A DNA stretch of 64,000 nt, taken from the IMG/VR virus record IMGVR_UViG_3300033074_001783, positions 1-64,000 of that record; one strand, written 5' to 3'. Within the stretch, counting starts at the first letter, position 1. Every line of letters starts with the position of its first letter. The notes beneath the pieces are model-generated. The model saw only the letters and a program-made list of their open reading frames with translations, had not been told where the DNA came from and did no database searches. The translations under genes and the position numbers were made by a program. Origin of the DNA: a virus (lineage: Duplodnaviria; Caudoviricetes). Shown piece after piece: positions 1 to 62,618 of this stretch.

Positions 1-22
1 GCAATTCCACCCTCTGCTACCA
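1..22 (+). tRNA. 3' end of a tRNA or tRNA-like RNA truncated by the window edge
   Basis: GCAATT-CCACC-CTCTGCT-A-CCA reads as T-loop, T-stem 3' strand, acceptor 3' strand, discriminator and CCA. Confidence 0.6.
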
Positions 23-113
23 AACAAAGTATGGCAGGTCGCGCCTGTCAGGCTGTCTTCTCCCGGCCGGGTTTCGGGCTCATTACCTGATGTGGAAGAC
101 AGCGACCAATTTC

Positions 114-185
114 GGGCATCTAGTTTAACTAAAACAACTAACCATCCAGTTAGGAGATCGGGGTAGAATCCTTGGGTGCCCACCA
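114..185 (+). ncRNA. Degenerate tRNA-like RNA (6-nt anticodon loop, atypical T-loop)
   Basis: Acceptor GGGCATC/GGTGCCC + ACCA; D stem GTTT/AAAC; stem CTAAC/GTTAG with loop CATCCA; T arm CGGGG-TAGAAT-CCTTG. Confidence 0.6.
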
Positions 186-236
186 AATATGCCTTGTCGG
201 TACGAATGAGCAGATTTTTTTAGAAAGCACACTAAC

Positions 237-416
237 ATGAACATCGTAGCGCAAACAATTTTTGAGTATTTCAAAGAGCAAGACCCAACCGCTCCTGACC
301 ACAAGATCTACAACATGATGTTCCAGTTGGACACGAAGATTTGGCAGCAAAAAGGAGAGTCACTCACTGGAACCAAATGGCAAAAGACAGAAGAAGGCTT
401 CAAACCAGTGGAATGA
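237..416 (+). CDS. Hypothetical protein, 59 aa (MNIVAQTIFEYF...), below the ORF-track cutoff
   Basis: Open ATG..TGA frame filling the gap between two tRNA-like RNAs. Confidence 0.6.
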   Translation: MNIVAQTIFEYFKEQDPTAPDHKIYNMMFQLDTKIWQQKGESLTGTKWQKTEEGFKPVE

Positions 417-427
417 GCAGATTCTTG

Positions 428-529
428 GGGGACTTGGTGTATAGAACGAGAGCACACGCGTTGTAAATCCTCTTGACATATTGACGAGAGGTTGGCGCAA
501 GGAGGCCAGTGCGAATCTGGGAGTCTCCT
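428..529 (+). ncRNA. tRNA-like RNA with elongated anticodon arm
   Basis: Acceptor GGGGACT/AGTCTCC; D stem GTGT/GCAC; T arm CCAG-TGCGAAT-CTGG; anticodon arm replaced by GCGTTG/TGGCGC plus inner hairpin CCTCTTG/CGAGAGG. Confidence 0.65.
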
Positions 530-531
530 CT

Positions 532-855
532 ATGACAGACAACTACAACGGTTTTAAAGTTGGCGACATCATAACAACACATCATCCGGGTTATCACCAA
601 ATAACCGAACTGGCTGAGTACCAAGGCTACATGATTGGTGGCATCAACCAAACAACATACTATTTGGCCAAGTACAAAATGGTACTTGACAGCAAAGGGA
701 ATCCTTTGACTCGTCGTAAGGCAGAGCAACAGTGCAACATTAACTGTTGCCGATATGCTGTTGACTCTATTAAAGACGAGATTGTTGAGATTGAAAAGAA
801 GCGTGACAAACTGTTGAAGTTCATGGAGAAAATTCAACAAACAGAGAACTCGTAG
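532..855 (+). CDS. Hypothetical protein
   Basis: ORF; ATG 532 follows the tRNA-like RNA; the stop TAG lies inside the next tRNA-like RNA. Confidence 0.7.
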   Translation: MTDNYNGFKVGDIITTHHPGYHQITELAEYQGYMIGGINQTTYYLAKYKMVLDSKGNPLTRRKAEQQCNINCCRYAVDSIKDEIVEIEKKRDKLLKFMEKIQQTENS

Positions 856-933
856 CTCAACCAGCAGAGCTAGTGGGCAAGACCGCCAGATACGGAACCC
901 CACTCGTTGTTGGTGCAAATCCAACCAAGTTCA
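846..933 (+). ncRNA. tRNA-like RNA with expanded anticodon loop
   Basis: Acceptor GAACTCG/CAAGTTC; TA-GCTC..GAGC D arm; AGTGGG/CCCACT stem with a 21-nt loop; T arm GTTGG-TGCAAAT-CCAAC. Confidence 0.7.
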
Positions 934-935
934 CC

Positions 936-1111
936 GGGAGCCTTTCAAGCCACTCTTGGCAGAGAAAGTAAGATGTGAAACAGAACTAGGTGCCTGCCAG
1001 CATCAAAAGCACACACGGGTTAAACCGTGTAGTCCGCAAGTTGTTTAAGCGGCTTCTCTTCGGAGAATGTGGTGTAAGAAACGTAACGTCTTATGGTTTG
1101 CATTGGCTCCC
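936..1111 (+). ncRNA. Unidentified multi-stem structured RNA (~176 nt)
   Basis: Closing stems GGGAGCC/GGCTCCC and CAAGCCA/TGGTTTG; internal TGGCAG/CTGCCA, ACACGG/CCGTGT, CCGC/GCGG and a C-UUCG-G tetraloop hairpin. Confidence 0.6.
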
Positions 1112-1136
1112 TCTTAATCCGCAGATTCCAAAGATT

Positions 1137-1197
1137 GATTCAACCAGAGAATGTATGAGACGAAACAACGTGAATCTAAAGATTCTCTGGTTGAATC
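1137..1197. repeat. Perfect 16-bp inverted repeat
   Basis: GATTCAACCAGAGAAT ... ATTCTCTGGTTGAATC with a 29-nt spacer. Confidence 0.85.
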
Positions 1198-1198
1198 T

Positions 1199-1227
1199 TT
1201 CAAACTCAAGTCTGAGTGTGTTAGATT
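1199..1227 (+). promoter_or_regulatory. Early sigma70-like promoter, leaderless mRNA
   Basis: TTCAAA-N17-TAGATT-N6-ATG(1234). Confidence 0.7.
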
Positions 1228-1233
1228 GAGTTC

Positions 1234-1443
1234 ATGACAACCGCCCGATACTTCCAGATGAACGACGAGTACGAGATTGTTCAAGTGCCAAAGAAGCAAT
1301 TTGAGAACCCTAAACCCTCGTGGCCCAACAACACGATGGTTGTGACGAAAACGGCAGATGGAATGATTGACATCAAATTGGACATGGCAAACGTGACGCC
1401 TCTTGATATCAAAGAAGCAATTGCATATGCAATTGCTGATTGA
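1234..1443 (+). CDS. Hypothetical protein
   Basis: ORF starting at the predicted +1 of the promoter. Confidence 0.7.
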   Translation: MTTARYFQMNDEYEIVQVPKKQFENPKPSWPNNTMVVTKTADGMIDIKLDMANVTPLDIKEAIAYAIAD

Positions 1444-1448
1444 TAGTT

Positions 1449-1521
1449 GGCTCAGTACCCCAACGGCAGAGGGGCTCGCCTCAGAAGCGATTCAGTGAGA
1501 GTTCAAGTCTCTCTTGAGCCA
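1449..1521 (+). tRNA. tRNA-Leu(CAG), short variable loop
   Basis: Cloverleaf GGCTCAG/TTGAGCC; loop CT-CAG-AA; T arm GAGAG-TTCAAGT-CTCTC. Confidence 0.85.
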
Positions 1522-1632
1522 CAACATAACCCCGTATTTTGGATGAGAATAAAATCATCACACCAAACAAAATACGAATTACTTGTCAATGGAAGTGAGA
1601 CCAGTGAGTAACCATTCTCACAATCTTCCAAC

Positions 1633-1706
1633 GGTGCTGTAGTCCAACGGCAGGAGACAATGGTCTAAGAAGCCATCCAGTGTGGGTTCAAATCCCACCA
1701 GCACCA
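1633..1706 (+). tRNA. tRNA-Leu(AAG), short variable loop
   Basis: Cloverleaf GGTGCTG/CAGCACC; ATGGT-CT-AAG-AA-GCCAT. Confidence 0.85.
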
Positions 1707-1708
1707 CT

Positions 1709-1981
1709 ATGATGTCACTATCAGAGCTTTGGGACAATTACGTTGGAGAAAACGCTACCACGATCAAAGAGTGGAAATTCCTTGAGTGTAAAACCCCAAA
1801 ACAGCAATCAAAAACTGGTAGGACACTCCTTTGGGTCTCACCAAAAGAGCCCAATATTCAATACAGATTTTTAAACACAACACGATTCAATGTAAAACTA
1901 AGGAAATTCCCTAAAAACAAGAATCGTGTTAACTTTTGTCAAGATCAACACGGAATAATCAGACACATTTGGATTGGGTGA
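1709..1981 (+). CDS. Hypothetical protein
   Basis: ORF; ATG directly after the tRNA. Confidence 0.6.
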   Translation: MMSLSELWDNYVGENATTIKEWKFLECKTPKQQSKTGRTLLWVSPKEPNIQYRFLNTTRFNVKLRKFPKNKNRVNFCQDQHGIIRHIWIG

Positions 1982-1984
1982 AAA

Positions 1985-2245
1985 ATGGCAAGAATCATCG
2001 GTGAAACAGAAGTGAAACCATTCACTACCATTATCCGTTGCGCTCAAGTGAGTGGCCCTTACAACGGAATAAAAGGTTGCTTTTCCCAGATTGAAATTGG
2101 ACTGGAGGATATCAAAGCCTCTCAAGATTATGAGGGAGATTGGTCCTTCTCAACAGTTTGTCCAAACTGTTACACAACTCTGTACATTTACTGGCAACTA
2201 CCACCGGGAATTATTGATTTGCTTAAAAACAATAAATCCAAATAA
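1985..2245 (+). CDS. Small Zn-ribbon protein
   Basis: MARII.. start, Cys pair and CPNC; resembles the ORFs at 2877, 5421 and 8797. Confidence 0.65.
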   Translation: MARIIGETEVKPFTTIIRCAQVSGPYNGIKGCFSQIEIGLEDIKASQDYEGDWSFSTVCPNCYTTLYIYWQLPPGIIDLLKNNKSK

Positions 2246-2287
2246 AATAGACGTATTGTGTTTGGGTTGGCGGAGTAGCTATCCGCT

Positions 2288-2332
2288 CTGAATTGCTAGG
2301 CGGTTTTTATGAGGAGCCGCCTAGCAATTCAG
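2288..2332. repeat. Perfect 16-bp inverted repeat (hairpin) upstream of tRNA-Gln
   Basis: CTGAATTGCTAGGCGG / CCGCCTAGCAATTCAG. Confidence 0.85.
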
Positions 2333-2343
2333 GCAAAGAATAT

Positions 2344-2418
2344 ACGGGAATAGCTCAATGGCAGAGCACCATCTTCTGAAGTTGGCCGTTGTAGGTTCAA
2401 GTCCTACTTCCCGTACCA
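2344..2418 (+). tRNA. tRNA-Gln(CTG)
   Basis: ACGGGAA/TTCCCGT acceptor, loop TT-CTG-AA, encoded CCA. Confidence 0.85.
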
Positions 2419-2419
2419 C

Positions 2420-2698
2420 ATGTCATACGAAATCACTTTTCCTACCATTGGTTCTTTTGCTGTAGCCACATCCAATACAGACAATGAAAGAGCGGCATTA
2501 AAACGAGCGTTCTTGAACGCTATGTTGATGAACAACTTTGTTGAAAATCCATCAGAAGAAGACCCTTGGACCGTTGTAAACGAAGAAACCAAAAATTGTT
2601 GGACAATCACAAATGTTTCACAAATTGGTGATATTCTAACACAACTAAAAAATTCAGTTAGAACCGTCTTCACTTTAACTCCAAAAGGAACACCATGA
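2420..2698 (+). CDS. Hypothetical protein
   Basis: ORF in a tightly coupled gene run. Confidence 0.65.
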   Translation: MSYEITFPTIGSFAVATSNTDNERAALKRAFLNAMLMNNFVENPSEEDPWTVVNEETKNCWTITNVSQIGDILTQLKNSVRTVFTLTPKGTP

Positions 2699-2880
2699 AA
2701 AAACTAATTGTCACAGCAGTTTTCGCAATTCTCGCCTCGTGCAAAACACCCTCGTACCCATCAACAGATTCTTCAGTTTCGGATATTGTCGTGGTTGATG
2801 AACCCGTTCTTGAACGGGATGCGGGTTGTCAAACTCTAGATTCTGCTGTGGTTCATGTGGAGCGGGAGTGTGCGCGATGA
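2695..2880 (+). CDS. Small lipoprotein
   Basis: MKK + hydrophobic stretch + LASC lipobox. Confidence 0.65.
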   Translation: MKKLIVTAVFAILASCKTPSYPSTDSSVSDIVVVDEPVLERDAGCQTLDSAVVHVERECAR

Positions 2881-3125
2881 AAATCATTGAGCAAGGTGGT
2901 TGGGCAAACCCTTGGTTCCAAGAATGTCGTTGCTCACAAAAAGGTTGCGGCGCAACTCTGTTGGTTGAAGAAAAAGATCTAAAACCATGTGGATACAAGG
3001 GCACCTCGGCGCCATTCGGCAAGTTCACATGCCCCGTTTGTGGACACGAAACAACAGTTTCAGATCTGCCACCACGTCTTGTTCAAGCTCTAGACAAAAA
3101 ACGTATCTCCGACTACTACGATTGA
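2877..3125 (+). CDS. Small Zn-ribbon protein
   Basis: MKIIEQG.., CSQKGC and CPVC; ATGA overlap with the upstream gene. Confidence 0.7.
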   Translation: MKIIEQGGWANPWFQECRCSQKGCGATLLVEEKDLKPCGYKGTSAPFGKFTCPVCGHETTVSDLPPRLVQALDKKRISDYYD

Positions 3126-3163
3126 ATCTTCCAAAACACCTCTCGTTCTACTACAATCATCAC

Positions 3164-3724
3164 ATGCGTAGAAAAAAAACATGGGCCATTTACGGTGGAT
3201 CATTCAATCCTCCTCATTTCGGGCATCTGTTCGTAATTGAATACCTGTTGAACATGGAAGGCATTGATGGCGTTCTTATTATCCCGACCTACAAACACCC
3301 AGATGGGAAAAATCTTGTGGATTTCAACACGCGTGTTGAAATGCTGCAAGACATGATTAGTGAAAAAGAACAAGTTTTTGTTTCAAGAGTAGAAGAAGAG
3401 TTGGGAGGAGTTTCTTATTCTATTCGTACCGTACAACACCTTGTCAGCGAATACAAAGACTTGAATTTCAGGTTTATTGTCGGTTCGGATTGTGTCATGA
3501 ACAAACAAACATGGGGTGAGGATTGGGACAAAATCAACGCAATTGCACCAATGTTTGTTATCGGCAGAGCAGGCTGCGAAGTGGATGGTGTACCGACCAT
3601 CATGCCAAACATTTCCAGCACAAAAGTGAGAGCTCTAATCAAAGAGCTTGATCTGCAAGAAGCCGCTAAACTTCTTCCAAAGATCGTTCTTGACAACATC
3701 ATTGAAAAAGGTTTGTACTGTTGA
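3164..3724 (+). CDS. nadD: Nicotinate-nucleotide adenylyltransferase
   Basis: GGSFNPPHFGH (HxGH), FIVGSD and ISST motifs; leaderless promoter TTCCAA-N17-TACAAT-N6-ATG. Confidence 0.9.
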   Translation: MRRKKTWAIYGGSFNPPHFGHLFVIEYLLNMEGIDGVLIIPTYKHPDGKNLVDFNTRVEMLQDMISEKEQVFVSRVEEELGGVSYSIRTVQHLVSEYKDLNFRFIVGSDCVMNKQTWGEDWDKINAIAPMFVIGRAGCEVDGVPTIMPNISSTKVRALIKELDLQEAAKLLPKIVLDNIIEKGLYC

Positions 3725-3731
3725 TTTTTTT

Positions 3732-3806
3732 GCCGCTGTACGCCGCCTGCCTTCTAAGCAGGAGAAAGCTAATGGACACATGTAGGTTCAACCCCTATCA
3801 GCGGTG
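3732..3806 (+). tRNA. D-armless tRNA-Arg(TCT)-like RNA with long variable region
   Basis: GCCGCTG/CAGCGGT acceptor; CCTGC-CT-TCT-AA-GCAGG; T arm GTAGG-TTCAACC-CCTAT; only 7 nt between acceptor and anticodon stems. Confidence 0.7.
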
Positions 3807-3814
3807 CTAAACTT

Positions 3815-4282
3815 ATGAACATCCCCGGAATGACGTATTTTTCCAACAATCAACTAAACAACTTGGCTCGCAAAATGAAGGAATCAGATTTGTATCAAGA
3901 AAGAAATACAATGAAAAATTTTGATCTTGATATAGCCAACGCACTAGAAGATGGCAAACGACTTGCGGCAGAGAAAAAAGCAGAAGAACTAAAAAAGCTT
4001 GCTGCTCAAAAACAAGAAATTCTCAAAGTTCAACAAGAGCTTGAATTTCTGGTGTCAAATGCCATTAAAAAAATTCCTGAAGAAGTTGCCAAAGGTGCCA
4101 CTTATGTTGTTGTGGATTATTACCGCGATGAACCAACTCCTTTGGATGAAATCAAAATGAAAATCAAAGCAGATCATTTTGTTGCCATGTTTAAAAATAG
4201 CCAAATAGCAACTGCAAAAGTTGTATCAGATCATCACGGCAAACATTTTGCTTTGCACCTACACTTTCCATCACAGGCATAA
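3815..4282 (+). CDS. Hypothetical coiled-coil protein
   Basis: ORF. Confidence 0.65.
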   Translation: MNIPGMTYFSNNQLNNLARKMKESDLYQERNTMKNFDLDIANALEDGKRLAAEKKAEELKKLAAQKQEILKVQQELEFLVSNAIKKIPEEVAKGATYVVVDYYRDEPTPLDEIKMKIKADHFVAMFKNSQIATAKVVSDHHGKHFALHLHFPSQA

Positions 4283-4283
4283 A

Positions 4284-4670
4284 ATGACGCCAGAACAAAT
4301 CAAATCGTTTGTGTATAACGAAGTAAAAAGAGGGCTTTCAAACAAAACCGTCAAAGAGGCAGAAGAGAAAGCCCAAAAAGAAAAACTTCAACGAATGAAA
4401 GTTGAGAACGCAATAAGTGTTGCGGAAACAGAACTGAAAAAAATTCTTGGAACAATTTCCAAACTCGTTGAAGAAACAGATGAAGACACAATCAAAGTGT
4501 TTGATTGGTCAGACACTTCAACCAAAGAAGGTCTTATGTTGGGAACCGTTGTTGGAAGTCACATCAAGCATCTTGTAGAAAGTGCTGGTTTTGTGGCAAT
4601 TCAAGAAGGCCACATTTCCAAAGAGGATAAAATGACATTGCCAATTTCAGTTTATATGGTGTTCAGATGA
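4284..4670 (+). CDS. Hypothetical coiled-coil protein
   Basis: ORF; ATG just after the upstream stop. Confidence 0.65.
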   Translation: MTPEQIKSFVYNEVKRGLSNKTVKEAEEKAQKEKLQRMKVENAISVAETELKKILGTISKLVEETDEDTIKVFDWSDTSTKEGLMLGTVVGSHIKHLVESAGFVAIQEGHISKEDKMTLPISVYMVFR

Positions 4671-5044
4671 ACGACAATAGCTGTTTGAGTAATTTTTATG
4701 TGAATATCACGGCCAGCGGCAAAGAAAGTCTTGCTAACTGCCTGCGACTTTTCTTGGACGACAAAGATACAGTTTCCGACTATGCGATAACAAGCAAAGG
4801 TTTTGAGTTGCACAAGTGGTCTGATCACAACGGTAAAACAATCCCTCTACCATACAAAATGGGTTATCAACCAGTTTTGGAACTGGCTGATGACAAACGA
4901 GAATCCGTCAAAATTTGACGGGCCACGTCCAGACATAGATGGGAGCACCTCTTCACAAGGTGTTTTCAACATCAAAAAACCTAACGATGTTTGGGCCGGA
5001 ATACTGTTCACAATCAAACCTGTATGGGGTTGCACCACAAATGA
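4667..5044 (+). pseudogene. Probable frameshifted hypothetical gene
   Basis: Protein-like sequence moves from frame 4667 (..LPYKMGYQ) to frame 4803 (FWNWL..PDIDGS..FTIKPVW) near 4870. Confidence 0.45.
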
Positions 5045-5382
5045 AAAACGCAAAATCTTGGAACAAGTACGTGATCAGGAAAGATGGAACAGACCTCTAC
5101 TGCGACGGCAATACCAACCCAAGGTATGTTGGGTTTGGTCCACTGGAGAAAGCGAGACTGTTTACACGACTCAACTATGCACGAACATACGTGACAAGAA
5201 TGAGGGTAAACTACCGTCGTCAAACTGAGAAAAGCAACAGATTTAATCCATTCACCGGCAACATGTATGAGATAGACCCAACCTCTGATCAATCCTATGT
5301 TTTCCCTCTTGAGGGTTGTTCCATTGTAGAGGTGGTGCTTGTTGCTGTAGATGAGGTTGTCCATCCCCTAACCAAACCTTAA
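5041..5382 (+). CDS. Hypothetical protein
   Basis: ORF from ATG 5041. Confidence 0.6.
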   Translation: MKNAKSWNKYVIRKDGTDLYCDGNTNPRYVGFGPLEKARLFTRLNYARTYVTRMRVNYRRQTEKSNRFNPFTGNMYEIDPTSDQSYVFPLEGCSIVEVVLVAVDEVVHPLTKP

Positions 5383-5420
5383 TACTTCAAACCGTCAGAA
5401 GGGTGTGCTAAGTTAGGTTC

Positions 5421-5612
5421 ATGACGAAGGTAATCGGGCAGGACGAAAAAATTGGACGCAAAGTTTCGTGTCAGGGTTGTGGAGCCCGCATCCTCTACTA
5501 CAAAAACGATGTACACTCCCAAACTTACTCAAGTTGGGGTGAAACAGAGGTTTGTTACGACATCAAATGTCCAAATTGTAATAAAACCGTTGAAGTTAAA
5601 GCTTGGTATTGA
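5421..5612 (+). CDS. Small Zn-ribbon protein
   Basis: CQGC and CPNC; leaderless promoter TTCAAA-N17-TAAGTT-N6-ATG. Confidence 0.75.
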   Translation: MTKVIGQDEKIGRKVSCQGCGARILYYKNDVHSQTYSSWGETEVCYDIKCPNCNKTVEVKAWY

Positions 5613-5631
5613 AGCGACCTTTGGTCGCAAT

Positions 5632-5714
5632 GGCTCTCTGGCGTAATGGCAGCCGCGCTAGACTCAAAATCTGGTCCCCGAAAGGGGGTGTGGGTTCAAT
5701 TCCCACGGGAGCCA
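5632..5714 (+). tRNA. tRNA-Leu(CAA), long variable arm
   Basis: GGCTCTC/GGGAGCC; CTAGA-CT-CAA-AA-TCTGG; variable arm CCCC-GAAA-GGGG. Confidence 0.92.
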
Positions 5715-5716
5715 CT

Positions 5717-5862
5717 GGATCTAGTCTGAATAGGGCACCTGAAAGCACTAAGTCTTTTCTTGGAGGAAAGCAAAGCTGGCATAAATGCCTAAAGGTATGC
5801 TGGAAAGCAAACGGGCAGACGAACATAATGTTTTGATCAGAACGTGCCCAAATGACAGGTCC
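5717..5862 (+). ncRNA. Unidentified structured RNA between two tRNA-Leu genes
   Basis: Nested stems GGATCT/AGGTCC, GTC/GAC, GGGCAC/GTGCCC; internal hairpin CTGGCATA/TATGCTGG. Confidence 0.5.
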
Positions 5863-5953
5863 ATTTCTTTCAAGGAAATAAACCCTTGAAACACGCCTAG
5901 CGGTGAACGACAGCTAGGGCCTGCGTCTCTTGGGGTTTACAAGAGACATCTAT

Positions 5954-6037
5954 GGCAGCGTGGTGGAAAGGCAGACACAGGGCACTCAAAATGCCCCGTC
6001 GCAAGACATGAGGGTTCAAGTCCCTCCGCTGCTACCA
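5954..6037 (+). tRNA. tRNA-Leu(CAA), second divergent copy
   Basis: GGCAGCG/CGCTGCT; GGGCA-CT-CAA-AA-TGCCC; encoded CCA. Confidence 0.92.
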
Positions 6038-6110
6038 TGACCGATGAAATACTGATTGCAATTTGGATTTCTTTGGTGGTATTATTTTTCACAATTGGAG
6101 TTGTGTCCAC

Positions 6111-6326
6111 ATGTTCATAACGGTTAAAGATCTAAAAAAGAAACTCGGTTCCGTAGATCCAGATGCAATCGTTGTTTTGCAAGGGTGTGACCATGACTTC
6201 ACGCCAATTGTATCCGCCCGCACACAAACTGGCTGGTTGCAAAGTGGCAAACGCAAAATAGACGAAGACATTGGTGAAAATCCTCAAAATGGTTCTGTCC
6301 TCGTCAATTTGTTTGTGGTAGATTGA
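6111..6326 (+). CDS. Hypothetical protein
   Basis: ORF with GGAG upstream; starts ITVKDLKKKL..DPDAIV. Confidence 0.6.
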   Translation: MFITVKDLKKKLGSVDPDAIVVLQGCDHDFTPIVSARTQTGWLQSGKRKIDEDIGENPQNGSVLVNLFVVD

Positions 6327-6330
6327 AACC

Positions 6331-6570
6331 ATGAACCGGCTAAAACAAATCCTTGCTTTGGTGATCGGCAAACACTCTTCTACTGGTCAAACTTCTGGTT
6401 CCACTGGTTCGTTAATCAATGGAACCGAAGAAGTAAACCAATCAACTGTTCAAGAGTTGACCACTTATCTACAAGAACAGTTTCCAAACCTTGAAGTGTC
6501 TTTGCATTCTTTGGATGCAAAAGATGACAAATGGGGCTCCATCTTCTACAACTGGCAAATACGCCAATAA
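6331..6570 (+). CDS. Hypothetical protein
   Basis: ORF. Confidence 0.55.
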   Translation: MNRLKQILALVIGKHSSTGQTSGSTGSLINGTEEVNQSTVQELTTYLQEQFPNLEVSLHSLDAKDDKWGSIFYNWQIRQ

Positions 6571-6613
6571 TCAATTAGTTCAAAACCAACCTTCTATTCT
6601 GTAGAGTAGGAAC

Positions 6614-7630
6614 ATGGCAACAATTACCCGTGGAAACATCCCGGCAGAAGTCATCTACATCTGCCGAAAAGAGCAGAAAACCATTTTTACTTGGGAAGGC
6701 GATACCAACTCAAGCGAAGCTGTCAAAAGCCGAACGGTTATCCCTGCTTATATTTCTGACGCCGCAAACAAAAAGACCATTGAAACAGGTGAACGGTGGG
6801 CAAGCCATCGTTTCATGACAAACAGTGATGTGCCAAAGTACACTTATCCAAACACTCCAGTTGTTTCGGTTGAAGTGGTCAGCATTGAGAAACGAACTGA
6901 AGGTGGTCGTGCCTACAAGTGCATTGTCACTTTGGAAGATGGAAAACAATTTTGGGTTGATCTACGAGAAGATGTGCTCCTTGAGACAATGGTTTCTTCA
7001 GGTGTTTCAAAGGGCGGATTTCTTGTTGGCCAATTTGTTTGGGCAAGGGTTGGCTCTGACATGAAGCTTGTTCGTGTTGGCTCAGAGCTACACGCACGGA
7101 TGGCCGAATCAACAACACTTGGGAAAAAGCCAAAGATTTCTGACTACGAAATTGGTGGAGTTTACAAGACCAAAACAGGCCAAGAGTGGATCTACTGTGG
7201 AAAAGTGAACACGGTTGAAGCAACGGACACAACAGATCCTCGTTGCTACTACCTTGGCGGTAGCTATTCGTTTAGCTGTCTCCTCAAGAGGCTCAATGGA
7301 GCAAATCTGTGGTTCAAAAAGTCAGACAGCAGAAACGTGTTCCAAAACACGATTTCCCATTACCAAAACAACATTCACGCGTTTGTGTTTGCTGACAAAA
7401 AAGCTGTTGTTGAAAAGTCAGAACAACTTACTCTACCGGATAATTTCTTGAACGCAATTCGTCACGCGGCAACAGTACAAGCGAATGCATATGAGAAAAA
7501 CGAAAGATACAAGTTTTCTCTCACCGTCTGCTATGCCGCCTTGGCAAACATGGTTTCTGTTGATCAAGTAGAACCAGTTGAAACTCACCCAATTTACAAA
7601 AGCTTGTTTGAAAGGTTTTATTTCCGATGA
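6614..7630 (+). CDS. Hypothetical phage protein
   Basis: 338-aa ORF; leaderless promoter TTCAAA-N17-TAGAGT-N6-ATG. Confidence 0.8.
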   Translation: MATITRGNIPAEVIYICRKEQKTIFTWEGDTNSSEAVKSRTVIPAYISDAANKKTIETGERWASHRFMTNSDVPKYTYPNTPVVSVEVVSIEKRTEGGRAYKCIVTLEDGKQFWVDLREDVLLETMVSSGVSKGGFLVGQFVWARVGSDMKLVRVGSELHARMAESTTLGKKPKISDYEIGGVYKTKTGQEWIYCGKVNTVEATDTTDPRCYYLGGSYSFSCLLKRLNGANLWFKKSDSRNVFQNTISHYQNNIHAFVFADKKAVVEKSEQLTLPDNFLNAIRHAATVQANAYEKNERYKFSLTVCYAALANMVSVDQVEPVETHPIYKSLFERFYFR

Positions 7631-7923
7631 GATCTACACTTGAAATTCAACCAGAGAAAACTTATCGTTTACATAACCAAGTATGCCAAAATCCAAAATG
7701 TCTTAAACCAATGGATACCTTGCCAAAAACAAACGCAGGCAGAAAATACTGCTCTCTTGCTTGTTCAAGGGCAGTCTTCAAAACCAACGGACATACCCGT
7801 GTTGTACTGAACACACAGAAGAAGGAAGCAAACGCACGAGCAGCAGAATCAGCAGTTTCGTGGTTTGCCAAGTTCAGCGCAGAAACCCATGCCAACCAAA
7901 TGAAGAAAGTACAGATTCCATGA
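7627..7923 (+). CDS. Hypothetical Zn-finger protein
   Basis: CQNPKC ... YCSLAC motif. Confidence 0.6.
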   Translation: MRSTLEIQPEKTYRLHNQVCQNPKCLKPMDTLPKTNAGRKYCSLACSRAVFKTNGHTRVVLNTQKKEANARAAESAVSWFAKFSAETHANQMKKVQIP

Positions 7924-8381
7924 CAACCGATGCTAAAAGGGCTACAGATTGGCTAAAACGAGCAATTCGTTTTGATGACAGATTGTCTGGCTCGGACAAC
8001 ATCAACGATCACGAACACCTGATTGCCAAACTGCTTGATGGTACTTGGGATGAGACTCCCATCATCCCGCCAAACACAGGTTTGATTGATCGGATAAAGA
8101 TTCTTGCAACAGAAGTTGGTGACGGACCTTGCACAAATGTTTATGTCATTCCGCGAGTGTCCAATGTTGGATTTTTCGCCTTTGCTGATAGAGAATGTGA
8201 TAATCCTGAGATTCGTACCATTATGTCATCTAGAGGTGGTTCTGAGCAAAGCGCTTTGGAAAATCTTGAAACCGCGCTCAGAAAATACCATCAAGACATA
8301 ATCAACGATACGGAAAACAAACTACGCGACGCCAAGTGGCTAAAACTAGAAATTCAACACAAAAAGAACCTTCTGAAATAG
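7920..8381 (+). CDS. Hypothetical protein
   Basis: ORF with ATGA overlap. Confidence 0.65.
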   Translation: MTTDAKRATDWLKRAIRFDDRLSGSDNINDHEHLIAKLLDGTWDETPIIPPNTGLIDRIKILATEVGDGPCTNVYVIPRVSNVGFFAFADRECDNPEIRTIMSSRGGSEQSALENLETALRKYHQDIINDTENKLRDAKWLKLEIQHKKNLLK

Positions 8382-8440
8382 TTTCAAAATCTGTGTCGGG
8401 CGTGGTAAAGTAGATCATCGCTTCTGACGACACAGAAGAC

Positions 8441-8513
8441 AGGCCCGCGCACGGGTTGTGCTACTTCGCCTTATAAGCGGAGAAAAAGAGTTCAAATCTC
8501 TTCGGGCCTACCA
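8441..8513 (+). tRNA. tRNA-Ile(TAT) with atypical D arm
   Basis: AGGCCCG/CGGGCCT; CTTCGC-CT-TAT-AA-GCGGAG; AAGAG-TTCAAAT-CTCTT; ACCA. Confidence 0.75.
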
Positions 8514-8522
8514 AGAAACGCC

Positions 8523-8804
8523 ATGAAAAACTTTAGTCTAAAAAATGCATTCATCAACGGAATTGGCTCCGTTCTGGCAATTCCAGTCCTTCTCACAATC
8601 ACAGCGGTAGACAAACTTAAAGTCAAAAATTACGCAGAACTTGTTCTGGTGTCTGCCGGTACTGGAGCTCTTGTGGTCGGCGTTCCAATCGGAATGGCTC
8701 TTGTGTTTGGACCTTGGGCTGCTGTTTCTTACATTGCTGGTGTTGTGTGCATCTGTATGGTTTCTGGCATTCTTCAAGAACTTAGTAAGGTCAAAAATGG
8801 CTAG
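8523..8804 (+). CDS. Membrane protein
   Basis: About three hydrophobic segments. Confidence 0.65.
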   Translation: MKNFSLKNAFINGIGSVLAIPVLLTITAVDKLKVKNYAELVLVSAGTGALVVGVPIGMALVFGPWAAVSYIAGVVCICMVSGILQELSKVKNG

Positions 8805-9000
8805 AATTATCAGCAACGGTCCCATTGGCGCTTGGCAAGAAGTGTGTAAAGGTTGCCACTACAAAGTGGAGTTTTCTCCAGCCGACATACACGAAGGCAG
8901 AGACGAAGACGACTGGACTCGTTACAAGTATGTTATCTGCCCACAGTGTCACAAAACGATTGACGTGCTAAAGCGTGAACGAGAGTGCGACGACTACTGA
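8797..9000 (+). CDS. Small Zn-ribbon protein
   Basis: MARIISNG.., CKGC and CPQC. Confidence 0.7.
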   Translation: MARIISNGPIGAWQEVCKGCHYKVEFSPADIHEGRDEDDWTRYKYVICPQCHKTIDVLKRERECDDY

Positions 9001-18979: not shown

Positions 18980-19055
18980 TGGCGTAAATATATCACGGGA
19001 TATGGTGTTGGGCAATCCAACATTTGTCAAGGTTCAAATCCTTGTACGCCAACCA
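18980..19055 (+). ncRNA. tRNA-like RNA with non-canonical D and anticodon arms
   Basis: TGGCGTA/TACGCCA + ACCA; T arm CAAGG-TTCAAAT-CCTTG; ATATC-ACGG-GATAT; TGTTGG-GCAAT-CCAACA (no U33). Confidence 0.7.
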
Positions 19056-23013: not shown

Positions 23014-24219
23014 ATGCAACTCCAAGTACAAGAATATCTTCGCACTCACTCCCTCAAAGATCTTGAGCGTGAACATGGAATCTATGCTGGTTTTGGTCCA
23101 ACCAAAACTGGCTACAAATTCTCGCTCAACTACGATCAGATTGAATCCAAGGATTCAGATCCATTTACGCTTGAATGTCGCGGTTTGGTCCTTGCCCGCA
23201 AAGATGGAGCCCAAATCAACCCAGAAGAGCCACTTGGTGAGACCGTCGCTCTTGCTGTTCCAATGAAGCGTTTCTTCAACTACGGGCAGAAGCCTGCTGC
23301 TCAAATTGACTGGTCAACCGCCAAGGTCATGGAAAAACTTGATGGCACTTTGGGAATTCTGTATTTTGATGATTTCGCTGATGAGTGGTGTGTGGCAACT
23401 CGTGCAGCGCCCGAAGCTGATTATTGCATTGACGGTTTTGGTGACTACACCTTCCGTCGTCTGTTTGAGCAATGCCTGAACGAAACACTTCAGCTTGCCA
23501 GCACAATGTCGGATGCTGAGTGTTTTCAGCAGTTCACCAATGAACTTTGTACGGATTACACCTACTGTTTTGAAATCACAAGTCCAGTGAATCAAGTGGT
23601 AGTTCGTTATCAAGAAAACCGACTTACTCTTCTGGCAGTTGTTGATCGCACAACCACCAAAGAGGAGCGTTTGTTTAACGGTACACTGAATGGGGTTCCA
23701 ACCGTTGTATTTCACCCTCTTGGAACCCTTGATGACGTTCTGTCGTTTGTGGCAAGTCGTTCTGCTTGTGACTACGAGGGTGTTGTGGTTATTGACAGCA
23801 ACTTCAACCGTGTGAAGGTGAAGAATCCCGGTTATCTTGCTCTTGGAAACATCAAGAGTTCTGCGGTTGCATCTCCTCGTCGGCTTCTTGAACTTGTACT
23901 TTCTGGCAAAGATGACGATGCAATTGGCCTTGTCACTCCCTTGGTACAAGAAAAGCTTGTCTCAACAAAAAAAGGTTATGCTATCCTGTGCCGCTCTGTT
24001 GATGATTGGTATGCCAAAACCATGTCAACCATTCACGGAGACGATTCACGTAAGCAACTGGCCTTGGTTTGTCAGGCAGATAAAATCATGATTGGGCCTG
24101 TCATGGCAATGTATCAAGGTAAAGCATCTTCTTTCCAAGGATGGGTTCTCAACAATCGTCAACAAGATGGAAGTTGGGCGGATTCCTTTTTGGACAATTT
24201 GCTATCGTCCATTTCATGA
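23014..24219 (+). CDS. RNA ligase, T4 Rnl1-like
   Basis: ECRGL, RFFNY, EKLDG, FEITSP, EGVVV, RVKVK; leaderless promoter. Confidence 0.85.
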   Translation: MQLQVQEYLRTHSLKDLEREHGIYAGFGPTKTGYKFSLNYDQIESKDSDPFTLECRGLVLARKDGAQINPEEPLGETVALAVPMKRFFNYGQKPAAQIDWSTAKVMEKLDGTLGILYFDDFADEWCVATRAAPEADYCIDGFGDYTFRRLFEQCLNETLQLASTMSDAECFQQFTNELCTDYTYCFEITSPVNQVVVRYQENRLTLLAVVDRTTTKEERLFNGTLNGVPTVVFHPLGTLDDVLSFVASRSACDYEGVVVIDSNFNRVKVKNPGYLALGNIKSSAVASPRRLLELVLSGKDDDAIGLVTPLVQEKLVSTKKGYAILCRSVDDWYAKTMSTIHGDDSRKQLALVCQADKIMIGPVMAMYQGKASSFQGWVLNNRQQDGSWADSFLDNLLSSIS

Positions 24220-28042: not shown

Positions 28043-31033
28043 TTAGATAGCCCCAGCGTTTGTAAGTACAAAGTCAAGTGACATAAATTCAACAGATTTT
28101 ATTGGAGATATCCAAATTTCTCCTCTGATTGTGTTGTTTTCTATATCTGCCTGAGTTGTGAGACTGTCATCTATGACCACTCTGTAGTTTTCAATGCCGT
28201 TGAGTGTTTTGACGTTTTTCAACACAGGGTTTACAAGTTGTCTGAACTTCTCCAAAGTAGAATCTTTATTTGGTTCAAAAACAATCTTGTTTGACAGTTT
28301 TCTAATTTGTCTTCTGATGGAAATAAGAAGACGACGGACGTTGATCCTGTTAAAAGAAGACTGTCTAGCCAGAAGGGTCTTCTGTCCCCACACCGCGATA
28401 CCTTCGCCCGCAAAAGAAGCGATTGGGTTGATGTTGACCGAAGCCAGTGTGTCCATGTTCTGTCTTGACAAAGACACAGACAAACTGTCGGTTGTTCGCA
28501 AGGCGCCTCTAGTGAAGCCCGCAGGTGCAAAGTAAGGGTGACCAACAGAATCATTGATACCGAAAGCACCAAGAACCATTACGGAAGGTGGAACTTGTGT
28601 TACTGTTCCGTTGTAAGAATCTCTAATGTTTCCATCTGGGAAATATGTTGCAACGAAACTTGAATTCAAACCTCTGTTTCTGAAACTTGCCGCAGTGTTT
28701 TTCACGCTTGGCAACTGTGTGTCACTCGTGACAACTGCGTTGTTTATGTCTCTTACTTCAAGATCCATTATGTACAAAGCATCAAATCTATTTTCTGCTG
28801 TTCTGATCGCAAGATCTGTCAGTTGTGAATGCCTGATTCCCGGCATTGCAAGAAGCTGAATGTCTACCTCGGAAGTGTCCGACAATATTTCTAATGCTTT
28901 TGTGTATGCTTTTACAGAAGGTCCGTTTGTTTGACCTCTTGATGGATATGACATCTCTTCTGTGACAGAGGAGTTGTTCAATTCATTCGCGTTCTGGTTG
29001 AACGACAAAGTTCCATTAAATCCACCTTCAACAAAGAATGAAAACTTGGCGATCTGTCTGACGCTTGGGTCCAACAGGTCTGTTATGTTCAAACCTCTTG
29101 TAAGAGCAGAGGTGTCTCTTGTGATGTTTCCCGCTCTAACATAAGACCAGTTTTGCAACTGACCAACATCAGGCAAATCTGTTGTGGCATTGTATACCAC
29201 TTTAATTTTTTCAAGAGAGAAAGCGTTGTTGTTGAAACGATCTGCGTCAAGGATGCTGTTTTCTGCTGTATCCGCAACCCCTTCATTGTCACGCACGACC
29301 ATGTTTTGCCAGATTGTTTGGAAGTTGGGGTAATACTTCACAAAAGAAGCAAGACTTGTGTTTGGGCGTGTGCTTGCGTTTGTTTCCAAAGCACTGTTGA
29401 TTTGTTCAAACTGAACACCCCAATAAAGATTGCGATCTGTTGTTTGTGAAGCGCCCAATCCTTTGGCCAAGTTGAGTCTCATTGGCACAGGAGGTTGAAC
29501 CATTTTTCTCAATGGGTCTGAAACATCCAAATAGGCTGCGTCGGACATCGCCGCGAAGACAGCACTTCCAGAAGTAACAAGGTGCTGAGATCCTCTAAAT
29601 CCCATTGGCAACGCAGTTGGGTTTGTTTCACCGTTTTTAACGTTTTCAGACATCTCAACGCGAATATATTTTGAACGAACCGGATAATCACCATCTGTGA
29701 TTAACTTCTGGCGTTTCTCAGAGGCATCAAAATTGAAATACGTGTGAAGGTCTCCGATGACTTTCGCAATGTACCTTGGAGACTTTGGATCAAGGCTCAG
29801 GCCACGCCAAGGTTCAAGAATTGTTTTAGCGGAATCAACATCTCCAAACGAACGAACAATCAAATCAAAATACCCATACAAATATGTGTCAGTGTTTGAT
29901 GGAACAATGTTTTCTATTGAAATTTTTACCGGCTCACTGGCACCATCGCTTGTAAGCCACACTTTAAACAAGTTTTCCTTGGCCCCACCAAAATTTTGCG
30001 AGAATACCCAAGGAGAGCTTGCAGTCCTATAGCGGTCTTCAAAGTTTTCAAAGTTTGGAACTGTTGCAGAACCAACATTTCTATTCAAAGAACTTGTTGC
30101 AAGAAATGCAATGTTTTCATAACCGTTTGAGTGAACGGCACCAGAAAGGGCAGGAATATAACCAGAACCAGTAACCACGCCCACACTTGGATGAATATCA
30201 AACCAAGAGTAAAGCAAGTGGCCCGCCTCTTCCATTGAATAAGGGTCTGTGTTCAAAACATTTGGGAAATAGTTTGCAGATGAAATATCAAAAGAAGCTG
30301 TAACAACTCTTGGATATCTGGCCGTACCTTTGTGACCATTGAAAAGCAAAACAAACTCTTGCTTACCATTGGTTAGATCAACAGAACCAGAGTGGAATCC
30401 TTGCAAATATCCTGCTTCTGCGCCCTCTGTGTCAATCGCCCCAAGAACAGAACTGACATTTGTGGCAGAAAGAGCCGGGATTACGCCCGACGCAGCAAAC
30501 AAAACTCCTCTCAAAATGACAGGCGTAGCTCCAAGACCCGCATCTGTAAAATGAGAAGATGAAACACTTTGACTCATGCATGTAGCAAGCATGTATGTTC
30601 TGCCGGGAGATCCAAAACCACCAGCGGAACCAGACAGTGTTGCGTATGCGTTGTTACCAAGTGCACCAGACAAAGAAGCTTGTGGCTGTTGTGCGCCAAC
30701 TACAAAACCAGCGTTTGTTACTTTGCCAGCATTGTTGCCGCTTGTGGTTCTGGCTGTGGCATCGCCAACTCCCAAAACTCTAAGTTGAAGAAAAGATTTC
30801 TGCGTTGCCAACCACTCCTTAGCTGAAAGGGGACCAAATTTAGATCCATCTTGAGGAGGACCAAAAATAGTCATATAGTCTGGCATTGTTCCAACTGTGA
30901 TTGGAACGAATGCAGGACCTTTAAGTGTTGTTGAAATTACAGCAGCAGGAATACCAGTTGGCTCTGCTTGTGTAGGACCAGTTTCATCTATTTCGCGTGC
31001 TGTTATCCCCGCGCTATGGAATGTTTGAGACAT
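28043..31033 (-). CDS. gp18: Tail sheath protein (copy 2)
   Basis: N-term SAGITAREID..GPAFVP; C-term FAPAGFTRG, INPI, WGQKT, RINVRRLL. Confidence 0.9.
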   Translation of the reverse strand: MSQTFHSAGITAREIDETGPTQAEPTGIPAAVISTTLKGPAFVPITVGTMPDYMTIFGPPQDGSKFGPLSAKEWLATQKSFLQLRVLGVGDATARTTSGNNAGKVTNAGFVVGAQQPQASLSGALGNNAYATLSGSAGGFGSPGRTYMLATCMSQSVSSSHFTDAGLGATPVILRGVLFAASGVIPALSATNVSSVLGAIDTEGAEAGYLQGFHSGSVDLTNGKQEFVLLFNGHKGTARYPRVVTASFDISSANYFPNVLNTDPYSMEEAGHLLYSWFDIHPSVGVVTGSGYIPALSGAVHSNGYENIAFLATSSLNRNVGSATVPNFENFEDRYRTASSPWVFSQNFGGAKENLFKVWLTSDGASEPVKISIENIVPSNTDTYLYGYFDLIVRSFGDVDSAKTILEPWRGLSLDPKSPRYIAKVIGDLHTYFNFDASEKRQKLITDGDYPVRSKYIRVEMSENVKNGETNPTALPMGFRGSQHLVTSGSAVFAAMSDAAYLDVSDPLRKMVQPPVPMRLNLAKGLGASQTTDRNLYWGVQFEQINSALETNASTRPNTSLASFVKYYPNFQTIWQNMVVRDNEGVADTAENSILDADRFNNNAFSLEKIKVVYNATTDLPDVGQLQNWSYVRAGNITRDTSALTRGLNITDLLDPSVRQIAKFSFFVEGGFNGTLSFNQNANELNNSSVTEEMSYPSRGQTNGPSVKAYTKALEILSDTSEVDIQLLAMPGIRHSQLTDLAIRTAENRFDALYIMDLEVRDINNAVVTSDTQLPSVKNTAASFRNRGLNSSFVATYFPDGNIRDSYNGTVTQVPPSVMVLGAFGINDSVGHPYFAPAGFTRGALRTTDSLSVSLSRQNMDTLASVNINPIASFAGEGIAVWGQKTLLARQSSFNRINVRRLLISIRRQIRKLSNKIVFEPNKDSTLEKFRQLVNPVLKNVKTLNGIENYRVVIDDSLTTQADIENNTIRGEIWISPIKSVEFMSLDFVLTNAGAI

Positions 31034-31084
31034 CAATTGCTCCAGTTGCCTTATAGATAGTTAGCTGCTGGAGATTAAAAAGAC

Positions 31085-34100: not shown

Positions 34101-34216
34101 CGACCTTTTTCTGAAGGTCCCACAAGTGCGTAAGGAATTCCTGTTGGCGTAACAACGCGACCTGAGAGATCTATCTCACGATCGTAGTACCCCGGTGATA
34201 TTGAATTTTGAGTCAT
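31127..34216 (-). CDS. gp18: Tail sheath protein (copy 1)
   Basis: SPGYYDREID..GRAFVP; WAPAGFNR, INPI, SQKT, INIKRM. Confidence 0.9.
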   Translation of the reverse strand: MTQNSISPGYYDREIDLSGRVVTPTGIPYALVGPSEKGRAFVPMTFGSTEDFIESNGNLDPKYPVGYAAKQILDRGRAVTFLRVLGAGANRTSAHMETTRLAGTVRNAGMQVTGSVVGLPDGRHAGAVQFLAARHIVSASEAFCYPMFTDNSSYSLAGSVANLVRAVLFTTSDARFMVLDTNETFGPLVDDGASIDDTSTNATYRKFKLVLSSSAGSTFATTDGFAGVKIYTASLNPNSTDYVGKILNTDPERFSVEKHLLYADFAVDNEIASVASGAIPDANAVLILSGTSLTSATSGLGSLTMRDAYGRFDTRFTTPKTPMFISQPFGGVEYDLFRVEAIDDGEAANGKYKIGISSLKLNTDPQNQYGTFSLIVRDFSDTDFDPIVLEQFTNLSIDPNSDNYIAKIIGDKKVYYNFDVDNEDDRRLVATGKYPNKSKFIRIEMTDAVERKQVPAPCLPFGNRGVNVLNTNTSLTDTNVAAIPARLGVSGSFLTGAKAVLGSIVPPLPYRFKVTRGEVNTSPSFTGHPGAGEIVDSRLFWGVKYERISNIGNPNVANEPNPLVSAYTKFLGIEKLDVLVTGSFADSFNDNKFTLARVALSTTSFANLTGSAEQHMKEAAYIRNGVVNPSSYTITDGVWGDRLTLASLAAYGGYTNTSQMANFNRFSDYAKFTVPLFGGWNGYNIFDKSAARFNDRATSTESSSAGYGCAHASYTSPGATTGVNYGGIGIDNNAVSSYRVACNIMADPYINNANIFAIPGVRDPLVVDYALDKIQTEHQLAMTVTDIPYYDFNSIRIFDTEIGRFIDVEKTAESFDNRVVDKDASGFYFPNIVMDDVSGGRRVTVPASVGALSALAYNDKVAYPWWAPAGFNRAALDFVRMTQTRINNDERDRLYESRINPITKFPGEGYVISSQKTGKLAKSALNSINIKRMVLEVKRIVVSVAMKLEFDNITPDLYDRFTTNAAAGLSMIQVKQGIERFKIICDDTNNSSVDANNNKMNGRISFVPVRSIERIFIDFIVTPSGVTFI

Positions 34217-34279
34217 CGTTTGCACCTCTTATTTTATCTGTCAGTAATAGTTAGCCGCTTCGCTTTGCGAATACCTTGG

Positions 34280-62155: not shown

Positions 62156-62156
62156 A

Positions 62157-62618
62157 CTAATCAATTTCCAATCTTAAATTGAGTTTATAGTATGCCTTTT
62201 TTATATGAGCATGAATCGTTGTTTGGGTATATTCCAACTCTTCATGAATTGATTCATTGTTAACGGATAACGAAACGGTCTTTTTGGACTCCTCGTTAAC
62301 ACGTTTTGCACGTTCCGCTTTGTACTCTTCTGAGATTTTTTTGATTTCGTCTTTTATGAAACCCAGAGCTTCTTCTCTGTGAGATTTCATCAGAGGATGC
62401 ATGGGATGTTTTTGATTCACCGTGCAAATTGTTACAAATGTGGCGGAAACATGTTTGTCATCCAAGAGCTTAAAACTCAAATAATGATGACGAGCCAAAC
62501 TTGATTGTTTGCCGAATGTGCGCTGAATTACAGTCGCAAGCAAATCAAATGTAGCTTTATCTGCAACTGGTTTTTGTGGAATGTGTATTTCTGGCACGGA
62601 ATTTACCTTCGTGCTCAT
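62157..62618 (-). CDS. Hypothetical protein
   Basis: ORF directly upstream of terminase. Confidence 0.65.
   Translation of the reverse strand: MSTKVNSVPEIHIPQKPVADKATFDLLATVIQRTFGKQSSLARHHYLSFKLLDDKHVSATFVTICTVNQKHPMHPLMKSHREEALGFIKDEIKKISEEYKAERAKRVNEESKKTVSLSVNNESIHEELEYTQTTIHAHIKKAYYKLNLRLEID

Follow-up and report, generated by a model that had tools for sequence, protein, structure and literature searches.

Organization of the tRNA-type gene cluster

The DNA analyzed here (the window) corresponds to the first 64 kb of a 118,963-bp IMG/VR contig, whose completeness is estimated by CheckV at ~32%, and its start is base 1 of that contig. T4-type capsid, portal, sheath and terminase genes are encoded in the window along with an Rnl1-type RNA ligase (23014-24219), and the source is a large uncultured T4-like phage. 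Its nearest cultured relatives, Flavobacterium phage immuto and Microcystis phage Mel-JY01, are distant (34-43% capsid identity), and many uncultured relatives are present in IMG/VR at 50-72% capsid identity. Comparison with GenBank phages at the DNA level returned pieces of tRNA only, and searches of IMG/VR by means of ORF 532-855 or ORF 2987-3724 retrieved no close relative. When ORF 532-855 was compared with a set of 5.8 billion proteins, the matches were the protein itself and one 1455-bp Logan contig, the encoded protein of which has at least 90% identity to it.

The tRNA-type genes of the window are all encoded on the + strand within 1-19.1 kb, where they alternate with small ORFs without a Pfam match. 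Turnover of this cluster is fast, as the tRNA set is wholly different even in G003, a relative with 68% capsid identity in which the tRNA region is syntenic. A separate observation in G003 concerns an orphan T arm followed by an acceptor 3' strand (GGTGG-TTCAAAT-CCACC-CTGGCGG-A), located ~15 nt after a tRNA-Ile(UAU) in locus L199, 8728-8844 (G003:C1:44727-44843), with no 5' half evident nearby; this piece may be a split, nested or truncated tRNA. Two further features of the window were recorded on the - strand. The ORF of the terminase large subunit (59183-62164, 993 aa) has terminase matches at both ends, and the families matched by its middle part (about 470-680) bear ribonucleotide reductase or helicase annotations, suggestive of an intein or other insert. 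Two tail-sheath paralogs of ~1000 aa each are adjacent to each other at 28043-31036 and 31127-34225.

Detection of tRNA-derived elements

The window was searched with R3, a covariance model built from 59 canonical tRNAs of unrelated IMG/VR phages, from which the sequences of the window were left out. On both strands of the 64 kb, R3 produced 13 matches, none of them on the - strand or outside 1-19.1 kb. They corresponded to seven tRNAs called by ARAGORN, a D-armless gene at 3732, three elements named here A (114-185), B (428-529) and C (846-933), an additional cloverleaf at 18980-19055 and a truncated element at 1-22. The highest score among the unusual elements was that of C (47.1 bits, E 1.8e-12), followed by A (27.7 bits with filters off), 18980-19055 (22.5 bits) and B (21.8 bits, E 1.9e-4), and the best match in a control search of the remaining 44 kb (both strands, filters off) reached 14.1 bits. 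The scores of all four elements are well above this control maximum, which identifies A, B and C as real tRNA derivatives, and 18980-19055 is tRNA-derived as well. The alignment of A, B and C to R3 extends over their full length. Four or five of the 13 tRNA-type genes in the cluster are non-decoding, each rebuilt in a different way. Moreover, the stem pairing of A, B, C and 18980-19055 is as good as that of the decoding tRNAs of the window, several of which carry mismatches.

An Infernal/Rfam search had been proposed as a check by an earlier reading of this DNA made from the letters alone (the sequence-only reading). In this search no Rfam family matched A, B or C, either at the gathering threshold (29 bits for RF00005) or at E<=10; RF00005 thus stayed silent on the three elements even at the permissive cutoff, and it was the independent R3 model that found them. 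The cloverleaf at 18980-19055 also escaped RF00005, and default ARAGORN left A, B, C and 18980-19055 uncalled. When relaxed and with introns allowed, the same program did call A, B and C, yet among 214-493 calls over the contig, so that these calls are uninformative. A stem-counting scanner gave ~26 chance matches per strand at loose settings, and R3 was used instead.

Some of the other tRNA-type genes in the cluster are also unusual. The gene at 3732-3806 is of the tRNA-Arg(UCU) type and has no D arm (Rfam 35.5 bits with the D arm skipped, R3 15.3 bits), with a 19-nt variable region. The genes at 1449-1522 (CAG) and 1633-1707 (AAG) carry leucine anticodons but, at 74-75 nt, a short variable region.

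Architecture of the elements

Element C (846-933, + strand; MFE z -2.26) is an 88-nt tRNA body. Its acceptor forms 6 of 7 pairs and is followed by a discriminator A, and both its D arm GCTC-AACCAGCA-GAGC (4/4) and its T arm GTTGG-TGCAAAT-CCAAC (5/5) are fully paired. The anticodon position is occupied by a 33-nt arm, in which a 5/3-nt internal loop separates a 6-bp stem from a 3-bp hairpin whose loop has 7 nt. Element B (428-529, + strand) is a 102-nt body in which the acceptor GGGGACT/AGTCTCC pairs at all seven positions and the discriminator is U. Its D stem is complete (4/4) and closed by the 11-nt D-loop ATAGAACGAGA, and its T stem has 4 of 5 pairs and the loop TGCGAAT. The arm at the anticodon position of B is 41 nt long. 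Its base stem of 5 bp leads through a 6/2-nt internal loop into an inner helix of 7 bp capped by a 9-nt tip, with a direct repeat TTGAC...TTGAC at the tip of the arm. The sequence-only reading had described at both places good acceptor, D and T arms with a long insert containing an inner hairpin, and sequence, folds and R3 all agree with this description. The insert sequences did not belong to any repeat family of the window, and promoter and terminator counts were at the level of shuffled sequence.

Element A (114-185, + strand; MFE z -2.07) is a 72-nt cloverleaf with a fully paired acceptor (7/7), an encoded ACCA end and a mini D arm, GTTT-AACTA-AAAC, of 4 bp and a 5-nt loop. Its 5-bp anticodon stem carries the 6-nt loop CATCCA, and its 5-bp T stem carries the 6-nt loop TAGAAT. 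The 6-nt loop and the CCA attributed to A by the earlier reading are therefore present, but the description of the T arm as intact is not quite accurate for A, as the T loop has 6 nt. A is the only element with a recognisable relative, a tRNA-Glu(CUC)-like gene found in the related contig G011 (34573-34641, - strand) and in locus L042. The mini D arm, the variable region and the ACCA end are common to A and this gene, in which the loops have 7 nt. A swap of the 19:56 tertiary pair between A and the G011 relative was considered and dropped, since a family of n=3 is too small for evidence.

The cloverleaf at 18980-19055 (+ strand; MFE cloverleaf z -3.25), located outside the range covered by the sequence-only reading, is also non-decoding. 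Its acceptor has 7 bp, and its D stem has 6 bp and a loop of 4 nt; the T arm (TTCAAAT) is canonical, the end is ACCA, and the 7-bp anticodon stem is closed by the 5-nt loop GCAAT. At the opposite end of the cluster, positions 1-22 (+ strand) hold the 3' portion of a tRNA gene, or of a tRNA-like one, that is interrupted by the end of the contig. Its R3 match (13.6 bits over model positions 54-75) is flagged as truncated on the 5' side and is at noise level when taken alone. This fragment includes the last 6 nt of the T-loop, GCAATT (presumably TGCAATT), the 3' strands of the T stem and the acceptor, and ACCA. A possible T-armless tRNA-like fold at 52-108 (+ strand) is weak, as its 8.6 bits with R3 are at noise level; it is closed by a 7-bp stem and contains a small D-like hairpin and a second hairpin, the 7-nt loop of which is CTCATTA, followed by an ACCA end. 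The MFE structure of 30-113 is Y-shaped and contains this fold (z -2.09). Directly 3' of C, the ~300 nt at 934-1232 have no convincing ORF and no Rfam match; a near-perfect 16-bp inverted repeat (1137-1197) closes this stretch, and the fold of 1081-1230 has a z of -2.94.

The elements cannot decode as encoded

None of the elements A, B, C and 18980-19055 has a 7-nt loop with U33 (and purine 37) on a 5-bp anticodon stem. Single excisions were evaluated in B and C on their observed base stems, in eight registers each, and none of them gave Y32-U33-NNN-R37; in the case of C, U33 was gained in none of its registers. The elements are thus unable to decode as encoded, and the prediction of the sequence-only reading that they should not decode holds for the encoded form. 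Since no single excision restores a normal anticodon loop, the presence of a simple intron is unlikely.

These results bear directly on the reading that B and C are precursors of decoding tRNAs, from which an odd intron would be cut by a nuclease before resealing by one of the RNA ligases of the phage. Such a scheme could call on the Rnl1-type ligase gene at 23014-24219, on the "enigmatic" introns reported in Lak megaphage tRNA genes (PMC6784885) and on the frequency with which tRNA bodies with inserts are found in IMG/VR. However, we regard it as very unlikely, given that 0 of 8 excision registers restore Y32, U33 and R37 in either B or C, and that no bulge-helix-bulge is recognized by inspection, as the internal loops (6/2 and 5/3) lie at a single level and do not form two 3-nt bulges 4 bp apart. 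Moreover, the inserts in B (24 nt) and C (16 nt) are far below the size of self-splicing introns, and the anticodon loops of A and 18980-19055 are too short rather than too long.

B and C belong to a widespread type of tRNA elbow

The 17-nt T arm of C was found in more than 115 IMG/VR contigs, mostly within canonical tRNAs (Met, Ile, Cys, Gln, His and others). Elbow positions were counted over 1104 distinct phage tRNAs from loci L002-L116 and L206-L360 (alignment A3). When the T-loop has U54-G55-C56, the D-loop contains AG (A18-G19) and no GG in 66 of 76 tRNAs; when the T-loop has UUC, it contains GG (753 of 769 tRNAs). This rule constitutes a clean tertiary-pair covariation over hundreds of phage tRNAs, with A18:G55 taking the place of the universal G18:U55 contact in a large class of them. 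No description of the A18:G55 covariation was found in the literature searched. The tRNAs with a UGCRAAU T-loop and a GG-less D-loop appear as ordinary decoding phage tRNAs and cover nearly all isotypes, and in loci L009 and L082 nearly the whole tRNA set is of the A18:G55 type.

Two side observations concern the distribution of this elbow. Locus L082 holds an A18:G55-type counterpart of the AAG tRNA of the window (1633-1707). In locus L242 (4617-4711, - strand), a duplicate of the 5' half of a tRNA-Thr gene is located in front of that gene, and the D-loops of the two copies read AATGGCA and AATAGCA, so that both elbow types occur next to each other.

B and C obey the elbow rule, as both combine a UGC T-loop with AG, not GG, in the D-loop. 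The decoding tRNAs of the window are of the GG/UUC type, and A, with its T loop TAGAAT and D loop AACTA, falls outside the A18:G55 class. The conservation of the A18:G55 covariation in B and C implies that their elbow is coherent and not randomly mutated. In any case, the variant T-loop does not serve as a mark of mimicry: being a widespread elbow type common in ordinary decoding phage tRNAs, UGCRAAU gives no sign of mimicry in B and C.

Placement of B and C between ORFs

The elements fit exactly between ORFs, with no spare DNA. B is separated by 11 nt from the stop of the preceding ORF (237-416) and by 2 nt from the ATG of the following one (532-855), and a GGGAG within the 3' strand of its acceptor is located 8 nt upstream of this ATG. 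C shares its first 10 nt with the end of ORF 532-855, and the TAG that terminates this ORF corresponds to tRNA positions 8-10. As B and C abut or overlap ORFs, their folding or their excision must affect the neighbouring messages.

This arrangement could be explained if the elements acted in cis as punctuation or regulation, the tRNA shape being a cleavage signal for RNase P/RNase Z or a mask over the start of the next ORF, and the released RNA having no role. Punctuation by tRNAs is known in mitochondria, and the tRNA-cluster transcript of phage T4 is processed by RNase P, so there is precedent for it; the end of B 2 nt before the ATG of ORF 532-855, its GGGAG 8 nt upstream and the overlap of C with the stop of the same ORF are what such a function would predict. 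We nevertheless consider a purely cis-acting function improbable. An ordinary tRNA would serve equally well, leaving the rebuilt anticodon arms unexplained, and 18980-19055 and A are less tightly set against ORF boundaries. In addition, the argument from GGGAG presumes that the host uses Shine-Dalgarno sequences.

B carries an alanine-type acceptor

The first acceptor pairs of B are G1-C72, G2-C71, G3:U70 and G4-C69. Among the sampled phage tRNAs, 30 of 38 tRNA-Ala carry G3:U70, compared with 16 of the 1043 tRNAs of other types. Alanyl-tRNA synthetase (AlaRS) reads G3:U70 and not the anticodon, and it charges even acceptor minihelices that carry this pair. As AlaRS ignores the anticodon and B has G3:U70, charging of B with alanine is possible, and judging by its acceptor pairs B is a plausible AlaRS substrate, its discriminator being U versus the A73 of tRNA-Ala.

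Similar objects in other phages

Models built from the single sequences of B and C were used to search 36 related contigs (major capsid protein 50-72% identical), in which only canonical-length tRNAs of G011 and one chance-level match were detected. The same models found nothing comparable in ~0.8 Mb of other phage tRNA regions, and two metagenome scans produced no match for C and one chance match for B, inside a coding region.

IMG/VR was also searched with a gapped pattern restricted to one D-stem type, in which the D stem GCTC/GAGC and the T arm are separated by 36-62 nt. With a UGC T-loop, this pattern detected 37 loci, 15 of them with a 6-7 bp acceptor and a long hairpin replacing the anticodon arm. 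With a UUC T-loop, at least 106 well-formed bodies were counted among the matches listed, some of which are long-variable-arm tRNAs or intron-bearing tRNAs of giant viruses. According to these patterns, which place tRNA bodies of this kind in more than 100 other phage contigs, rebuilt anticodon arms are common in phage tRNA-type genes, independently of the UGC elbow.

A link between rebuilt arms and the UGC T-loop was considered as a candidate and rejected, because the UUC control pattern yields even more inserted bodies. As a separate observation on the 15 long-armed elements of the UGC type (L207-L242), a self-complementary 6-nt word is present in 13 of the 15 inserts, compared with 7.5 +/- 2.1 in shuffles, and these words may act as kissing loops in dimers. 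In 93 inserted bodies of the UUC type the equivalent count was 41 vs 44, without enrichment, and self-complementary hexamers are absent from the loops of B and C.

Processed tRNA-shaped RNAs or recently inactivated tRNA genes

The tRNA ancestry of the elements, their intact body and their inability to decode are established by the data above. Two readings of these facts compete, namely that the elements work as mimics or that they are recently disabled tRNA genes. We favor, tentatively, the first of them as the best reading, according to which A, B, C and 18980-19055 would be processed, non-decoding, tRNA-shaped RNAs; we infer their expression, processing, charging and decoy role. Recent inactivation is its main rival, and we regard it as somewhat doubtful. 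In that case, each gene would have been disabled by a change in its anticodon loop (insertion, duplication or deletion), and the remains would not yet have decayed or been deleted.

The two readings share part of the evidence. A single insertion or duplication in a loop disables a tRNA and spares its other arms, so intact stems would also be expected of a young pseudogene. The absence of homologs of B and C from the 36 relatives and from the metagenome scans is in line with inactivation, as is the fast turnover of the cluster, in which the tRNA content of G003 is wholly different at 68% capsid identity. The direct repeat TTGAC in the tip of B fits a slippage duplication of a UUGACRA (Val-type) loop. 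In the case of A, the T and anticodon loops are each one base shorter than those of the G011 relative and the T-loop motif has been lost, and A was counted as the lowest R3 scorer, the figures given being 27.7 bits with filters off for A and 21.8 bits for B. However, inactivation would require that four or five independent events were retained in one compact cluster without spare DNA. It would also have to accommodate that no stem is broken, the new inner helices (B, 7 bp; C, 3 bp; 18980-19055, 7 bp) included, that the elbow covariation is kept in B and C, and that many unrelated phages have elements of this kind.

If the elements are indeed processed RNAs, a pathway can be proposed for them. 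They keep the acceptor stem, the T arm and the D/T-loop elbow, which would provide the L shape and a maturation substrate, and they have lost a readable anticodon. The elements would be transcribed together with the flanking small ORFs and tRNAs. RNase P recognises the stack of the acceptor and T arm and the elbow, not the anticodon arm. This enzyme would cut the 5' end, after which the 3' end would be trimmed and, in elements that do not encode it, CCA added. Once excised, B and C would leave the messages of the flanking ORFs separated, with a leader of 2-3 nt on ORF 532-855, and stable tRNA-shaped RNAs that the ribosome cannot use would accumulate. Their likely job would be to occupy tRNA-binding proteins, such as the tRNA-directed defence nucleases of the host, modification enzymes or synthetases. 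The sequence-only reading had suggested that they may be decoys for nucleases, sensors or synthetases, scaffolds cut out by RNase P, or split tRNAs that the ligases of the phage would join.

A bolder version of this proposal is that the phage deliberately makes at least four anticodon-less, tRNA-shaped RNAs that are matured by the host and excluded from decoding, at least one of which (B) is charged by AlaRS, and that these serve as decoys or sponges against tRNA-directed defences or as a non-ribosomal amino-acid carrier, thus representing a broad and undescribed class of phage mimics. We consider this whole set of claims unlikely to hold together. Phage tRNA genes are usually read as helpers of codon usage or as replacements for tRNAs cut by defence systems. 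Were the proposal true, the tRNA fold would have a second use in infection, for example binding or distracting tRNA-directed enzymes, and an entire class of phage RNA genes would be escaping standard tRNA finders. Should the elements turn out to be no more than young pseudogenes, the observation would be an ordinary one that mainly illustrates the speed at which tRNA clusters turn over.

Comparison with known systems

We compared the elements with other tRNAs and tRNA-like RNAs. Their likeness to canonical phage tRNAs (RF00005) includes the 7-bp acceptor, U8, the D arm, the 5-bp T stem with G53-C61 and a T-loop with U54...A58, whereas the 5-bp stem with a 7-nt anticodon loop and U33 is missing from them. 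B and C have in common with the A18:G55 class of decoding phage tRNAs the UGCRAAU T-loop and a D-loop with AG and no GG. The stable RNAs C and D of phage T4 (species 1 and 2) are small non-tRNA RNAs of the T4 tRNA cluster that are processed from the same transcripts, and their function is unknown. They resemble the present elements in being small non-tRNA RNAs among phage tRNA genes, but differ from them in that the elements are full cloverleaf bodies.

Lak megaphage tRNA genes with "enigmatic" introns (Devoto et al. 2019, PMC6784885) have extra sequence in the anticodon region of a conserved tRNA body, as B and C do. In Lak, the anticodon and the tRNA type can be assigned after removal of the predicted intron, and intron-free alleles exist (PMC6784885). 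In contrast, no excision in B or C restores a canonical loop, and no insert-free allele was found for them. The tRNA-like domain of tmRNA is comparable with B only, as both have an alanine-type acceptor with G3:U70 and no anticodon; B differs from it by its full D arm and by having neither pseudoknots nor a tag reading frame. ARAGORN detected no tmRNA in the window, and there was no Rfam tmRNA match.

Non-decoding mimics of the tRNA elbow are also known among the YrlA-type bacterial Y RNAs, which work with Ro60/Rsr (RF02553; Chen et al. 2014, PMC4201824). The ends of YrlA RNAs lie in the Ro-binding stem, not in an acceptor stem as in the elements. RF02553 gave no match at E<=10 in positions 1-9000, and no TROVE/Ro60 gene (PF05731) was found in the 118,963-bp contig, which covers ~32% of the genome. 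Finally, the non-proteinogenic tRNA-Gly of Staphylococcus has an elbow without G18, G19, U55 and C56 and is charged and kept from the ribosome (PMC4574755). This tRNA keeps a normal anticodon arm, and its elbow is U18/U19 or C18/U19, unlike A18:G55. The A18:G55 elbow of phages further differs from it by occurring in whole sets of apparently decoding tRNAs.
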